Assembly (NCBI GenBank): GCA_001750625.1
Contig: MEIE01000005.1
Coordinates: 1 to 47,075, forward strand
Source of the DNA: Candidatus Amphirhobacter heronislandensis
Lineage (GTDB): Bacteria > Pseudomonadota > Gammaproteobacteria > Tethybacterales > Tethybacteraceae
DNA length: 47,075 bases
Direction: 5' to 3'
Positions 28,921 to 32,711 of this stretch are shown in pieces. Below the pieces are notes generated by a model, which was not told where the DNA came from, ran no database searches, and saw nothing but the letters and a program-made list of their open reading frames with translations. How positions within the stretch are numbered: position 1 is the first letter of the stretch; each line of letters begins with the position of its first letter. The position numbers and the translations under genes are program-made.

Positions 28921-31900
28921 GCGCTTCAGGCGTGCGCTGCCGCGCGATGCCGCTGAGCCTGAGCGAGGAGCTCAACGCCGGCTCGTGCCGCAGCCTGCTG
29001 CTGAGCGACGTGATCGCGCGGCTGCGCCGCATGCAGGGCGAGCGGGTCGAGCCGGGCGCCAGCTGGGACAGCTTCGGGGCGGGCGTGCACATCGCGGCCA
29101 AGAACGAGGGCCTCGCGCCGCAGACCTACGTGCGCCGGACCATCGCCGCGCACCGCAGCGCGCTCGAGCGCCTCGACCTGCTGCTCGATCCCGGCGCCAT
29201 GCTCGACACCAGCGACCCGGCGCACGTCAAGTGGATCCAGGAGCTGTTCGTCCTGCTGTGGCGGGAGCGGCCGGCGACGCTGAACGAGGCCAAGGCGCAC
29301 AGCCACGCCTACTGGGATCCGGGGACCAAGAGCAACCTGGCGCTCAAGCAGATCGTCAACGGCCGCGGCTTCTTCTCGGGCATGCTGATCGAGATCCGCG
29401 AGGCCAGCTCCTACGAGATCCCGGTCTCGGTGGAACTGGGCGAGCGGCTGCTGGCCGGCCTCGAGCGCCTGGTCGGCTGGGACGACTTCGTCAAGAGCAT
29501 GCAGCGCGAGAGCGTCGGCCTCGAGGACGGCCTGCGCATGAGCTTCGGCCTTTTCGATCCGGCCCACCGCCGGCTGGAGCCGCTGGAGATCTTCACCTCG
29601 CGGCCGGACACCCTGCTCGGGACGACCTTCATCGCGGTCGCGGCCGACCATCCGCTGGCGCGGCGCATCGCGCACGACAGCGCCGCGGTCCGCGCCTTCC
29701 GCGAGGAGGTGATGCGGCCCGAGTACGCCTACCAGCGCCTCGGCGACGACAAGAGCCGCGACGGCGTCGAGCTCGGCGTGTACGCGGTCAACCCGGTCAA
29801 CGGCGACCACATCCCGGTGTGGGCGACCAACTTCGTGGTCGCGGGCTACGGCACCGGCGCGGCGCTGGGCATCCCGGGCCACGACCTGCGCAACCATCAT
29901 TTCGCGCTGCGCCACAACCTGCCGATCCGCCGGGTCGCGGTCGAGGACGGCGCCGACCCGACCGCCCCGATCAACTCGCCCTACGTCCACAAGCAGGGCC
30001 GCGCGGTCAACAGCGGCGCGCTGGACGCGGCGATCAACCGCCGCAAGAGCAGGCTGCGGCGCGAGGGCAACGACGGCGGCGGCGCCAGCCTGCGCGCCAA
30101 GCAGGACTGGGACCGCGGCGTCGCCGAGGAGGTGATCGCCTTCCTGGCCGAGCGCGGGGTCGATGCCACGCCGGCGACGATGGCGCGGCTGCGCGGCTGG
30201 AAGATCAGCCAGCAGGACTGCTGGGGCTATCCGGTGCCGCTGGTCCACTGCGAGGCCTGCGGGACCGTGCCGGTGCCGGCCGCCGAGCTGCCGCTGATGC
30301 CGCCGAAGTACGCCGAAGGCAAGGAGCTGCTGAGCGACTACCCGGCCTTCATCGCCTGCCGCTGCCCGCGCTGCGGCGGCAAGGCCGAGCGCGACGCCGA
30401 CACGCTGTCGAGCTATTTCGACGCCGCGGTCCAGCATCTCGCGGCCGGCGGCAAGAACATGACGTGGCGCGGCAAGGCCAAAGCGCGGCCGGTGGACTAC
30501 TACTGCTGCGGGGTCGAGCACGCCACCAACCATCTGCTGACGGCGCGCGTCATCCAGCGGCTGCTGGCGCAGGCGGGCCGGCTGGCCGGCGCGGCCGAGC
30601 CCTTCGCCGCGCTGCTGTGCCAGGGCACGGTGCTGAACTACGGCCTGCCGATGGCGCCGGGCTACGGCAACGCGGTGAGCGTCGCGAGCCTGCTGGACGC
30701 CTACGGCGCCGACCTGCTGCGGCTGTACGTCGCGACCGCGGCCGATCCGCGCCACCCGCTGCACTGGGACGAAAGCCGGCTGCTGGCGCTGCAGGGCGTC
30801 ATCGACGGCAAGGACCTCGCGGCGCTGCGGCGCGGCCGCCTGCGCGGGCTCAAGGCGGACAAGGTGGCGAACATGCTGAGCCCGCGGGAGCTGCGCCGGC
30901 TGCGCGAGGGCCTGCTGGGCCCCGAGGAATACGGCCTGCTGCTGCGCGACCGCCTGCCGGCGGCGCGGCTGCGCAAGGTCAAAAAAATCATCGGCGTAAG
31001 CGAGCTGGCGCGGCTGCGCGAAGGCATGTTCAGCGCCGCGCAGCTGCGGCGGCTGCGCAAGGGGGAGCTGACGCCGGCCGAGCAGGCCGCGGCGGCGGCA
31101 GAGTTCGACGCGCTGGAGCTGCGGCGGCTGCGGGACGGCCTGCTCGAGCGGCACGAGTTCGCCGCCCTGCTGCGCGGCGAACTGCCCGCCAAGCGCCTGG
31201 GCCAGGTCCAGCGCCACTGGCCGGCGGCGCTGCTCGCGAAGCTGCGCGCCAGCGGCGCCGACCCGGCCGACGCGGCCGCCGTCGCCGAGCTGCAGGAAAA
31301 GATCCTGACCCCGCTCGAACTGGTGGACGCTTTGCGGCAGGAGCAGCGGCTCGCGGCCGAGCGCAAGGCGCGGACGGTGCTGCGCGACGCCGACGTCCAG
31401 CGCCTGCGCGGCGGCCTGCTCGACCGCGGCGAGTGGAAACGGCTGCGCCAGGGCAAGCTCGCCGGCGCGAAGATGAAGGCGGCCAGGGAGCTGGCCGGCG
31501 AAGACGGGCTGGCGCGCATGCGCGGCGGCCTGCTCGACGAGGACGAGTTCGCCGCGCTGCTCGCCGGCAAGCTGCCGGCGGCCAGGCGGGCGCGGGCGGC
31601 GAAGCTGGTGGGCGAGGCGGCGCTGCGGCGCCTGCGGGCGGCGCGCGGCGCGCTGGCGCGGCTGCCGTTGCTGGAGAAGATCATGCCGGCGGAGCGCCTG
31701 TTCGGGACGCTGGCGGCCGGCGAGCCGGACGCCGGGCTGCGCCGGCGCCTGCTGGCCGTGCTCGACGCCAAGGAGCTCGCCAGCCTGCGGCAGGCGGCGG
31801 CCGCCCTGCCGGCGGACGGCTGGGTCCGGCTGACGGCCTTCGTCGACGAGCGGCGCATGGCGCGGCTGTGCGGCTTCGTGCCGGCCGCGAAGGAGAACAA

Positions 31901-32711
31901 ACTGGCGCGGCTGCTGGACGCGGTCGAGCTCAGGAGGCTGCGCGAGGAGGCGCGGCCGCGGCCGCCATTGCTGCGCTTCTTGCCGCCGGCGCGGATGGAC
32001 CGGCTGTGCGGCTTCATCGACGAAAGCAAGATGGACCGGCTGGTCAACCACCTCGACCCCGAGCGCATGGAGCTGCTGCTCGGCTTCACCGGCGCGCTGC
32101 GCGACCTGTTCGCGCGCAAGGACGCGGTCATCCGCGCCGGCGCGCGCCCGGACCCCGCCGATCCGCGCCGCGACGAGCTGCGGCGCGTCCTGCAGGCGCT
32201 CGGCTCCTGCTACGGCCTGGACCGGCGCCACGGCGTCCCCGAGCCGCAGCGCGCGCTGCCGCGCCTGCGCGAGCTCGCCGCGCTGCTCGAGACCGCATGC
32301 GACCCGGCCGACGCCGCGGACGCGGGTTTCGCCCGCGAGGCGGCGCGCGCCCTGCTGCTAGCGGCGCACCCCCTGCTCCCGGGCCTGACGGCCGAGCTGT
32401 GGGCCGCGGCCGGCTTCAAGGGCCAGCCGCTCGACGCGCCCTGGCCGCAGGTCGCCGCGCGCAAGGGCAAAGCGCGGGCGCGGCAAACCTGCATCATCCA
32501 GGAAAACGGCGCCAAGCGGCTCGTCACCGAGCACGAGGCCGGCCTGGCCGCGGCGCAGGCCAAGCGGCTGGCGCGGCGGGAGATGGCAAGATACGTCCAT
32601 GACCGCGGCTACCCGAGCTACCCGCGGCCGGGCGAGCGCATCCTCCGGACCGAGCACGTCGAGCGGCCGCACGAGACGGTGATCAACTTCGTCCTGGGGC
32701 CGGCGCGATGA
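28917..32711 (+). CDS. LeuRS paralog lacking catalytic motifs, with an internal repeat insertion of about 430 aa
   Basis: Colinear with LeuRS (SWDSFG, TSRPDT, GTG..GIPGHD, CxxC pairs, EHA..H, YGAD); HIGH reads NAGS and KMSKS reads PMAPG; open frame of 1264 codons; ATGA overlaps with both neighbours. Confidence 0.85.
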   Translation: MSASGVRCRAMPLSLSEELNAGSCRSLLLSDVIARLRRMQGERVEPGASWDSFGAGVHIAAKNEGLAPQTYVRRTIAAHRSALERLDLLLDPGAMLDTSDPAHVKWIQELFVLLWRERPATLNEAKAHSHAYWDPGTKSNLALKQIVNGRGFFSGMLIEIREASSYEIPVSVELGERLLAGLERLVGWDDFVKSMQRESVGLEDGLRMSFGLFDPAHRRLEPLEIFTSRPDTLLGTTFIAVAADHPLARRIAHDSAAVRAFREEVMRPEYAYQRLGDDKSRDGVELGVYAVNPVNGDHIPVWATNFVVAGYGTGAALGIPGHDLRNHHFALRHNLPIRRVAVEDGADPTAPINSPYVHKQGRAVNSGALDAAINRRKSRLRREGNDGGGASLRAKQDWDRGVAEEVIAFLAERGVDATPATMARLRGWKISQQDCWGYPVPLVHCEACGTVPVPAAELPLMPPKYAEGKELLSDYPAFIACRCPRCGGKAERDADTLSSYFDAAVQHLAAGGKNMTWRGKAKARPVDYYCCGVEHATNHLLTARVIQRLLAQAGRLAGAAEPFAALLCQGTVLNYGLPMAPGYGNAVSVASLLDAYGADLLRLYVATAADPRHPLHWDESRLLALQGVIDGKDLAALRRGRLRGLKADKVANMLSPRELRRLREGLLGPEEYGLLLRDRLPAARLRKVKKIIGVSELARLREGMFSAAQLRRLRKGELTPAEQAAAAAEFDALELRRLRDGLLERHEFAALLRGELPAKRLGQVQRHWPAALLAKLRASGADPADAAAVAELQEKILTPLELVDALRQEQRLAAERKARTVLRDADVQRLRGGLLDRGEWKRLRQGKLAGAKMKAARELAGEDGLARMRGGLLDEDEFAALLAGKLPAARRARAAKLVGEAALRRLRAARGALARLPLLEKIMPAERLFGTLAAGEPDAGLRRRLLAVLDAKELASLRQAAAALPADGWVRLTAFVDERRMARLCGFVPAAKENKLARLLDAVELRRLREEARPRPPLLRFLPPARMDRLCGFIDESKMDRLVNHLDPERMELLLGFTGALRDLFARKDAVIRAGARPDPADPRRDELRRVLQALGSCYGLDRRHGVPEPQRALPRLRELAALLETACDPADAADAGFAREAARALLLAAHPLLPGLTAELWAAAGFKGQPLDAPWPQVAARKGKARARQTCIIQENGAKRLVTEHEAGLAAAQAKRLARREMARYVHDRGYPSYPRPGERILRTEHVERPHETVINFVLGPAR
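30790..32085 (+). repeat. protein-level tandem repeats inside the LeuRS paralog (about six 38-aa units plus 12-aa units)
   Basis: Units begin LREGLL, LREGMF, LRDGLL, LRGGLL, MRGGLL at 38-aa spacing; later FVDERRMARLCG, FLPPARMDRLCG, FIDESKMDRLVN, HLDPERMELLLG. Confidence 0.8.

Follow-up and report, generated by a model that had tools for sequence, protein, structure and literature searches.

A leucyl-tRNA synthetase paralog with a predicted helical-repeat insert in Candidatus Amphirhobacter heronislandensis

A second leuS-like gene directly follows leuS

The window analyzed here is a 47,075-nucleotide stretch of contig MEIE01000005.1 from Candidatus Amphirhobacter heronislandensis, whose genus is placed under Ca. 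Tethybacteraceae, Ca. Tethybacterales, in the NCBI taxonomy. It encodes a canonical leucyl-tRNA synthetase (LeuRS; leuS, protein P0002), followed directly by a longer LeuRS paralog (P0001) with a repetitive insert of about 435 amino acids (aa), which an initial annotation had singled out. Escherichia coli has the order leuS-lptE-holA; the window has the same order with the paralog wedged in after leuS, and proA lies downstream of holA. The ATG of the paralog overlaps the leuS stop codon as ATGA, and the same overlap is present in the locus of a genus-mate (L024). The window genome (G000; 1.6 Mb in 239 contigs, 87.6% complete) has an unremarkable set of four tRNA(Leu) genes (taa, gag, tag, and caa).

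Loss of catalytic hallmarks and retention of tRNA-binding folds

To place the two neighboring genes, we compared their products with TIGR00396, the LeuRS equivalog model (cut-off, 548.4 bits), and with E. coli LeuS. P0002 scores 750.3 bits, above the cut-off, and keeps HIGH (as HVGH), KMSKS, and the editing residue Asp345, whereas P0001 scores 337.3 bits, below it. In P0001, the HIGH residues H49 and H52 (E. coli numbering) are replaced by Asn and Ser, giving NAGS. The equivalents of K619 and K622 in the KMSKS loop are absent from all seven paralogs compared, which have a conserved NYGLPM..YGN instead, and the equivalent of D345 is Asn in six of the seven, the window protein included, with the equivalents of T252 and D342 retained. 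Asp345 is described as critical for post-transfer editing deacylation and as an invariant residue that binds the substrate amino group (PMC4932531, PMC3017609). Because HIGH, KMSKS, and Asp345 are lost, the paralog is, by its motifs, a catalytically dead pseudo-synthetase.

The decay is graded among the paralogs: P0008 keeps HVGH and Asp345, P0012 keeps HMGH and has Asn at 345, and the window protein has lost all three hallmarks. KMSKS, lost in all seven, was therefore probably the first to go.

Judged from family matches and a structural model, the folds that hold tRNA(Leu) are kept in the paralog, namely, CP1, the Zn module, the anticodon-binding bundle, and the C-terminal domain. The CP1 fold is recognized by PF13603 (Table 1), and the class I core pieces PF00133 and PF09334 also match; PF08264 reaches just E 0.0024, below the family cut-off. 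A 705-aa C-terminal model (pLDDT 81.7) matches E. coli LeuRS 4aq7_A by Foldseek (E 8.9e-7), and the match to E. coli LeuRS-tRNA complexes runs through the helix bundle and the C-terminal domain, both of which are also supported by BLASTP to aa 698-773 of P0002. The paralogs share two further segments. One is the C-terminal 'RGYPSYPRPGERI...E..E....V.NFV' (window positions 32550-32708, aa ~1212-1264), which canonical LeuRS lacks; the other lies after CP1 (aa 373-405 in the window) and measures about 30-40 aa depending on the paralog.

The insert is built of 38-aa and 12-aa units

By BLASTP, aa 16-622 of P0001 align with aa 47-624 of P0002 (33% identity) and aa 1135-1210 with aa 698-773, so that 512 aa of P0001 stand in for 73 aa of P0002. 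We set the boundary by aligning P0001 to two references, E. coli LeuS and the LeuRS of G002, a family member without the paralog. The break point falls in the first helix of the anticodon-binding domain, between the native W-D-E-S and G-x-x-G-x-x-R (WQES and GVEGANRFL in E. coli), and the insert is therefore aa 621-1055 (~435 aa; nt 30777-32081), flanked by the native HWDES before and GFTGALRDLF after. The initial annotation, which described about 430 aa inserted after LHWDES at the start of the helix bundle (30790-32085), came within a few codons of these limits. Its remark that the region is rich in Arg and Leu also holds: the 512-aa region contains 95 Leu, 89 Ala, and 79 Arg residues, which together make up 51%.

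The proposed self-similarity of the insert is strong. Ungapped 20-aa windows scoring ≥35 (BLOSUM62) numbered 217, compared with 1.5 ± 2.5 (maximum, 15) in 200 shuffles preserving composition, and the top window scored 67, compared with a shuffle mean of 34.7 and a shuffle maximum of 59. The dominant offsets in the self-comparison were 38, 76, 130, 206, 46, and 12. The resulting layout is four 38-aa units, a 54-aa spacer, two 38-aa units, about 75 aa of irregular helices, and a run of 12-aa units (Table 1).

A unit hidden Markov model (HMM) was made from the five clear 38-aa units, which start at aa 656, 694, 732, 824, and 862; the E values of these units (about 1e-18 to 1e-20) are circular because the units built the model. 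The HMM also matches a partial unit at aa 627-651 (E 0.0045, HMM positions 10-34). Extended to 38 residues, this becomes unit 0 (aa 618-655), which starts in the native W-D-E-S segment, has a counterpart in L024 (E 3.6e-8, HMM positions 9-37), and forms helices at aa 619-626, 631-638, and 644-653 in the 705-aa model. Independent support comes from the homologs, in every one of which the HMM recovers equivalent 38-aa units, mostly at E 1e-8 to 1e-15 (weakest, 0.004); matching units are also present in the loci of three other genomes. Five clear units plus unit 0 agree with the earlier count of about six. The same annotation had units of type A (L.RLR.G.L) alternating with units of type B (EFAALL.G.LPA.R) in a 76-aa super-repeat. 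Every 38-aa unit in fact holds both motifs, A as helix 1 plus the turn and B as helix 2 plus the loop; the alternation of types is thus dropped, and the 76-aa periodicity remains. Units 656, 732, and 862 are 42-50% identical to one another, and unit 694 is 26-31% identical to each other unit. Across 32 units of the family, G10 is invariant, L20 and L25 are found in 31, and R6, L7, and L12 in 29; an acidic residue occupies position 3 in 29 units, and basic residues prevail at positions 21, 24, and 29 (18/32 each).

The 12-aa units, likewise noted earlier, were scored with a leave-one-protein-out position-specific scoring matrix (PSSM). Strong copies start at aa 975, 1021, 1033, and 1045 (23-32 bits), with weaker copies between, such as the one at aa 987 (5.7 bits), and the consensus is F-[ILV]-D-x-x-[KR]-M-D-x-L-x-x. 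Likeness between these 12-mers and the native flank had been taken to mean that the repeats grew from a LeuRS helix. On the 12-mer PSSM, the flank HWDESRLLALQG ranks 4th-7th of about 1000-1300 positions in six of seven paralogs, which are non-independent tests because the proteins are kin, but it scores just 1.4-4.8 bits, compared with 18-32 bits for most true units; the likeness is weak. Growth from a LeuRS helix is plausible by position, as unit 0 starts in the native W-D-E-S, but statistically weak. At the DNA level, TRF detected no tandem repeat with a period of 114 or 36, and the units are therefore old and diverged.

TABLE 1 Features of the leuS region in the window
Feature	Position	Strand	Basis
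Canonical leuS (P0002, 818 aa)	26464..28920	+	TIGR00396 750.3 bits; residues mapped to E. coli LeuS
LeuRS paralog (P0001, 1264 aa)	28917..32711	+	TIGR00396 337.3 bits; PF13603 1.1e-41, PF00133, PF09334
Degenerate HIGH motif 'NAGS' (E. coli H49-M-G-H52)	28974..28985	+	Alignment to E. coli LeuS
CP1 editing domain (aa 200-372)	29514..30032	+	PF13603 1.1e-41
Asn326, equivalent of editing D345	29892-29894	+	Alignment to E. coli LeuS
Former KMSKS loop, 'PMAPG' inside conserved 'NYGLPMAPGYGN'	30648..30662	+	Alignment
Insert proper (aa 621-1055, ~435 aa)	30777..32081	+	BLASTP and alignments
38-aa unit 0 (aa 618-655)	30768..30881	+	HMM partial match; helix 1 is native 'ESRLLALQ'
38-aa units 1-3 (aa 656-693, 694-731, 732-769)	30882..31223	+	Offsets 38/76; homolog matches; DSSP
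54-aa spacer (aa 770-823)	31224..31385	+	DSSP: short helix, then single 33-residue helix
38-aa units 4-5 (aa 824-861, 862-899)	31386..31613	+	Self-comparison, HMM, DSSP
Irregular helical stretch (aa 900-974) with degenerate unit remnants	31614..31838	+	DSSP, identity to L024
12-aa helix-turn units (aa 975-1056)	31839..32084	+	PSSM, DSSP
Remaining anticodon-binding bundle and C-terminal domain (aa 1057-1264)	32085..32708	+	BLASTP, Foldseek, alignment
150-aa lipoprotein (lipobox LLAGC) at lptE position	32708..33160	+	Synteny with E. coli and G002
holA (DNA polymerase III delta)	33157..34170	+	TIGR01128 109 bits, cut-off 80

Predicted structure and fold comparisons

AlphaFold2, given an alignment of 11 rows that were all kin, modeled the 438-aa insert as an all-helical repeat (mean pLDDT 89.2, pTM 0.65). 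One identical DSSP string recurs across the five full units, with helices of 9, 8, and 10 residues separated first by a turn containing one bridge residue and then by a 5-residue loop. In sequence, helix 1 reads x-x-E-L-x-R-L-R/Q-x and leads into a G-L-L turn whose last Leu is the bridge residue; helix 2 reads x-x-E-F-x-x-L-L, and the loop x-G-x-L-P precedes the 10-residue third helix. In the 12-aa units, 7 residues of helix are followed by one bridge residue and a loop of 4 residues. The model thus predicts, at high confidence, an all-helical array with three helices per 38-aa unit, and the alpha-solenoid first proposed for the insert is backed as far as prediction goes. A homodimer prediction of the insert (two copies) scored 0.19 against a mark of 0.42, which speaks neither for nor against binding.

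The comparison with known domain families that the initial annotation called for gave no significant match by Pfam, Foldseek, VIA-align, or profile comparison with SHOCT. Pfam returned no family at E values up to 10 for the 512-aa insert region and seven sub-pieces; Foldseek of the whole 438-aa model against the PDB gave a best E of 0.92 (probability 0.04); VIA-align of the same model gave no significant match; and ESM Atlas gave no usable match by features for aa 623-1060. Provisionally, the fold, searched as a whole 438-aa model, matches nothing known.

Kinship with MgtE_N/FliG or HEAT solenoids, raised with the first description of the insert, was not borne out by the Pfam search. FliG chains do appear among the top Foldseek rows, at E 1.2-3.7, probability 0.04-0.09, and TM 0.11-0.17; what FliG and MgtE_N would share with the insert is short helices in a right-angled repeat. 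Armadillo (ARM) repeats have a period of about 42 aa and Pumilio (PUF) repeats one of about 36 aa, to which the ~38-aa tandem units, each predicted to be three-helical, are alike in kind. The insert units differ in their G-L-L turn with its predicted bridge residue, and the insert has no Pfam match (E up to 10) to ARM, HEAT, PUF, or other repeat families and, searched as the whole 438-aa model, no significant Foldseek or VIA-align match. The SHOCT domain (PF09851), suggested by G-L-L-x3-E-F, was rejected (hhalign probability 17.9%, P 0.0014, 15 columns). It has a local G-[hydrophobic]-[hydrophobic]-x3-E-[FY] motif between two helices in common with the insert, but it is a two-helix C-terminal module, in contrast to the 38-aa tandem array. 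The PF09851 HMM has no match in G000 at E ≤ 1e-4 and none on the insert, yet 40 of 151 genomes of the class match it.

The gene is intact and conserved among relatives

A Logan contig of run X1 (12,576 bases) spans window positions 26300-33300 in one piece with 116 differences and 5 gaps. Two further studies supply contigs that run across the insert junctions, X2 (30927-32662) and X5 (29430-31596). Short "joints" in the contig mapping, with sides of 20-22 letters in GC-rich sequence, were judged spurious. OZ244940.1, a single-contig metagenome-assembled genome of Candidatus Amphirhobacter sp., encodes leuS (824 aa) and the paralog (1282 aa, ATGA overlap) and continues with a 150-aa open reading frame (ORF), holA, and proA, the same order as in the window. 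As contigs of three other studies and a single-contig genome carry the insert, it is no artefact of a chimeric assembly, a possibility raised when the insert was first described.

The paralog is 58% identical to that of the genus-mate (L024), compared with 58% for the lipoprotein, 63% for HolA, and 82% for canonical LeuRS. Parts of the insert are 42-53% identical, aa 900-974 being least conserved (42% to L024). On these comparisons, the divergence of the paralog is that of an ordinary constrained gene and not that of a pseudogene. Its 1264-codon frame is open, and the homolog alignment, which covers three genera and metagenome proteins, is nearly gapless. Among relatives, the unit count is the same in six of eight, and arrays are shorter in P0010 (1156 aa, with an insert of 281 aa) and P0012 (1030 aa, with an insert of 160 aa); in the latter, about three units of 38 aa and two or three of 12 aa remain. 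The short arms of these two proteins could be used as a natural deletion series for arm function.

Distribution and origin of the paralog

When 1.84 billion cluster representatives were scanned in full by HMMER with the 512-aa insert region as the query, seven proteins matched at E ≤ 0.001, and all of them (P0005 included) are LeuRS paralogs or fragments thereof. A word-indexed search of 5.8 billion proteins returned four, the window's own among them. With a 76-aa two-unit profile directed at longer proteins, seven of 8000 scored candidates matched at E ≤ 0.01, and each of the seven has a LeuRS Pfam set; this profile found no repeat outside LeuRS paralogs, which, given the limit set by the word index, is weak evidence of absence. 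In G000, the unit HMM run over 12,844 six-frame ORFs matches the paralog (E 2.3e-65) and nothing else, the next value being 0.28.

In a sample of 60 other genomes of the class, three of the four from the same family have the insert, and none of the 56 from other families does. G001, G003, and G004 carry a tandem pair of leuS and the paralog. In G002, of the same family (85% complete), leuS is directly followed by the lipoprotein gene and holA with no paralog between, and G005, of another family, has a single leuS. Among the proteins searched, the insert is, by sequence, confined to the paralog family of Ca. Tethybacteraceae. We found no description of the paralog in the literature searched (supplements aside), and the main text of PMC8546597, the main comparative paper, does not mention LeuRS.

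To place the paralogs, we built a tree by IQ-TREE quick search (LG+C20+F+G4; SH-aLRT support alone) from 28 rows and 824 columns with the insert columns removed. The rows comprised 21 canonical LeuRS, with E. coli as the outgroup, and seven paralogs. Canonical rows were omitted for G003 and G024 (partial), G028 (split), G012 (no match), G019 (missed by the motif filter), and G008, G013, G014, and G018 (unpicked), as were the paralogs P0004, P0009, P0011, and P0013-15. The paralogs form one clade (support, 100) that is sister (96) to the canonical LeuRS of G000, G001, and G004; the LeuRS of G002 branches next out (96), and all of these lie inside the Tethybacterales clade (100). This topology fits an origin of the paralog by tandem leuS duplication within Ca. 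Tethybacteraceae, a family of sponge symbionts. The deepest paralogs, P0007 and P0008, have full inserts of 428-430 aa, and the short-insert P0012 and P0010 are nested, a pattern that suggests that units were lost later and not that the array was built up stepwise.

The canonical LeuRS of paralog-bearing genomes is itself diverged, with a stem of 1.17 substitutions per site (window positions 26464-28920; loci L015 and L016). It scores 742-771 bits against TIGR00396 in G000, G001, and G004, and 564 bits for a truncated gene in G003, compared with 946-1169 bits for full-length matches elsewhere in the sample. It also has 'GKDAELKARKEG' where G002 has 'GLPAENAAIGQQ'. This divergence may reflect co-evolution with the paralog.

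Interpretation and rival explanations

LeuRS is described as among the most evolutionarily stable synthetases (PMC5388404). Non-charging LeuRS duplicates that bind tRNA(Leu) are reported from archaea, namely, LeuRS-I of Sulfolobaceae and LeuRS2 of Halobacteria (PMC9437257; PMC4005665), and have no assigned role in the account given by PMC9437257. By analogy, these two are the nearest functional analogues of the window paralog: each is a second LeuRS that has lost aminoacylation or nearly so, has been retained, and is thought to act via tRNA(Leu) binding outside protein synthesis. LeuRS-I still forms leucyl-adenylate and has a disrupted CP1 domain, whereas the window paralog is of the bacterial type, has lost HIGH and KMSKS, keeps CP1 with Asn in place of Asp345, and bears a 435-aa array; the portions of PMC9437257 that deal with LeuRS-I and LeuRS2 describe no such repeat insert for either. 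With canonical bacterial LeuRS (TIGR00396; E. coli 4aq7, N. gonorrhoeae 7nua) the paralog shares the domain order, CP1, the Zn-binding Cys pairs, the anticodon-binding domain, the C-terminal domain, and descent from the lineage's own leuS, but it falls below the family cut-off, lacks three catalytic hallmarks, and contains the insert. A pseudo-synthetase with an appended module is a known kind of protein; at the level visible to the tools used, the repeat domain is provisionally new.

We tentatively read the paralog as a non-catalytic tRNA- or RNA-binding protein whose basic solenoid arm extends the binding surface, a reading drawn from charge and analogy. The insert is basic in all eight full-length homologs (net charge, +7 to +28; pI 9.2-10.9), compared with a pI of 5.7 for canonical LeuRS. 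This charge and the near-invariant R6 (29/32) fit nucleic-acid binding without showing it. The paralog would dock on tRNA(Leu) or some other structured RNA but neither charge nor edit it, and the arm, as a basic solenoid with a conserved Arg/Lys ladder at unit positions 6, 21, 24, and 29, would widen the nucleic-acid-binding surface. In eukaryotic synthetases, positively charged helical appended domains raise the affinity for RNA, tRNA included; the arm would act in a like manner, although those domains are terminal extensions on active enzymes and this one is an internal repetitive insert in a dead paralog. Because it is translationally coupled to leuS through the ATGA overlap, the paralog is likely produced alongside LeuRS, and it could draw on the same tRNA pool, whether to sequester tRNA, to chaperone it, or to hand it over, or could take part in tRNA-dependent regulation.

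Several points weigh against this reading. Its RNA-binding element comes from charge and analogy, and the conserved Arg could just as well have a structural role, in a salt bridge with the conserved acidic residues at positions 3 and 16. The high pLDDT of the arm is tempered by the tendency of regular helical repeats to score high and by the 11 kin rows of the alignment. The full array is not indispensable, because two nested members have inserts of 281 and 160 aa. Finally, because both daughter stems are long (2.16 and 1.17), long-branch attraction is a possible caveat to the tree.

A rather unlikely alternative, though the main rival, is that the arm is a protein-protein scaffold that tethers the dead paralog to canonical LeuRS or to another, hypothetical partner, making a two-subunit LeuRS in which the duplicate is structural or regulatory. 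Alpha-solenoids commonly bind proteins, the coupling of the two genes (in L024 as well) would suit such a pair, and the acceleration of the canonical copy after duplication (branch, 1.17; TIGR00396, 742-771 compared with 946-1169 bits) hints at co-evolution. That acceleration may, however, be mere relaxed selection in reduced genomes, and a scaffold has no need of the conserved positive charge. Bolder, and improbable in our judgment, is a combination of the two ideas, in which the first helix of the anticodon-binding domain would have been duplicated again and again in place to give a new kind of RNA-binding solenoid. Once duplicated, the dead paralog and fast-evolving canonical LeuRS would have become an obligate pair whose arm subunit captures tRNA(Leu) or another RNA for the catalytic subunit or presents it to that subunit. 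If true, LeuRS would here be a system of two genes, found only in the reduced genomes of sponge symbionts.

The remaining explanations carry little weight. Synthetase paralogs are described as often tied to resistance against natural inhibitors (PMC5388404), and the leucine and editing pockets are structurally retained here, so that the paralog might confer resistance or serve as a decoy by binding a natural product aimed at LeuRS, sponges being rich in such compounds, with the arm incidental. We consider this very unlikely: a copy unable to charge tRNA could not stand in for an inhibited LeuRS, the paralog has lost the features on which such inhibitors rely (the adenylate-site motifs and the amino-group-binding Asp345), and the conserved 435-aa array would be left unexplained. 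It is more doubtful still that the protein is directed at the host, its arm engaging a host protein after release in the manner of the eukaryote-like repeat proteins of sponge symbionts. The restriction of the family to a sponge-symbiont lineage and the repeat-array architecture would suit this idea, but the gene is located in a housekeeping operon (leuS to holA), the N terminus has no obvious secretion signal by eye (no signal predictor was run), and Pfam on the insert and Foldseek found no likeness to eukaryotic repeat families. Least credible of all, with hardly any weight left to it, is that the region came about by chimeric assembly, belongs to a pseudogene in decay, or expanded neutrally as low-complexity sequence without function. 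The biased composition (Leu, Ala, and Arg at 51% of 512 aa), the 70-77% GC of the region, and the loss of all catalytic motifs might invite this explanation. Against it stand the same structure in independent contigs of three studies and a single-contig genome, the open 1264-codon frame with its nearly gapless homolog alignment and a unit count shared by six of eight, a repeat signal far beyond composition-keeping shuffles, divergence that matches that of the neighboring housekeeping genes, and the retention of a 3.8-kb gene in genomes of 1.6-1.9 Mb.

A gene of 3.8 kb kept in genomes of just 1.6-1.9 Mb can be argued to be useful to the cell. The paralog offers a bacterial case with a clear history: leuS was duplicated in tandem in one symbiont family, and the copy then lost HIGH, KMSKS, and the editing Asp step by step. 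It also gained a large repeat domain seen nowhere else in the searches made. It is a tractable test case for the roles of pseudo-synthetases, and its repeat fold, apparently born in place, has units that can be studied as a nucleic-acid- or protein-binding scaffold.

Neighboring genes

The lipoprotein encoded at 32708-33160 matches no LptE model in Pfam or NCBIfam, its best match being a faint one to an LptM signal region (E 0.027). On the other side of the leuS pair, Rfam matched nothing across 19500-26600. A 345-aa ORF at 19995-21032 has a uracil-DNA-glycosylase superfamily domain confined to aa 198-297 (PF03167, 1e-28), its N-terminal half having no family match. Directly upstream of leuS lies a low-GC island (21085-26352; GC 0.42-0.59, compared with ~0.70 around it). 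It encodes a GmrSD-type restriction endonuclease at 21085-22791 (PF03235, 5e-35; PF07510, 2e-26), two family-less ORFs at 22832-23506 and 23797-24879 (minus strand), and an AAA_15/AAA_21 ATPase at 24988-26352 (minus strand), and it is probably an acquired defence island.

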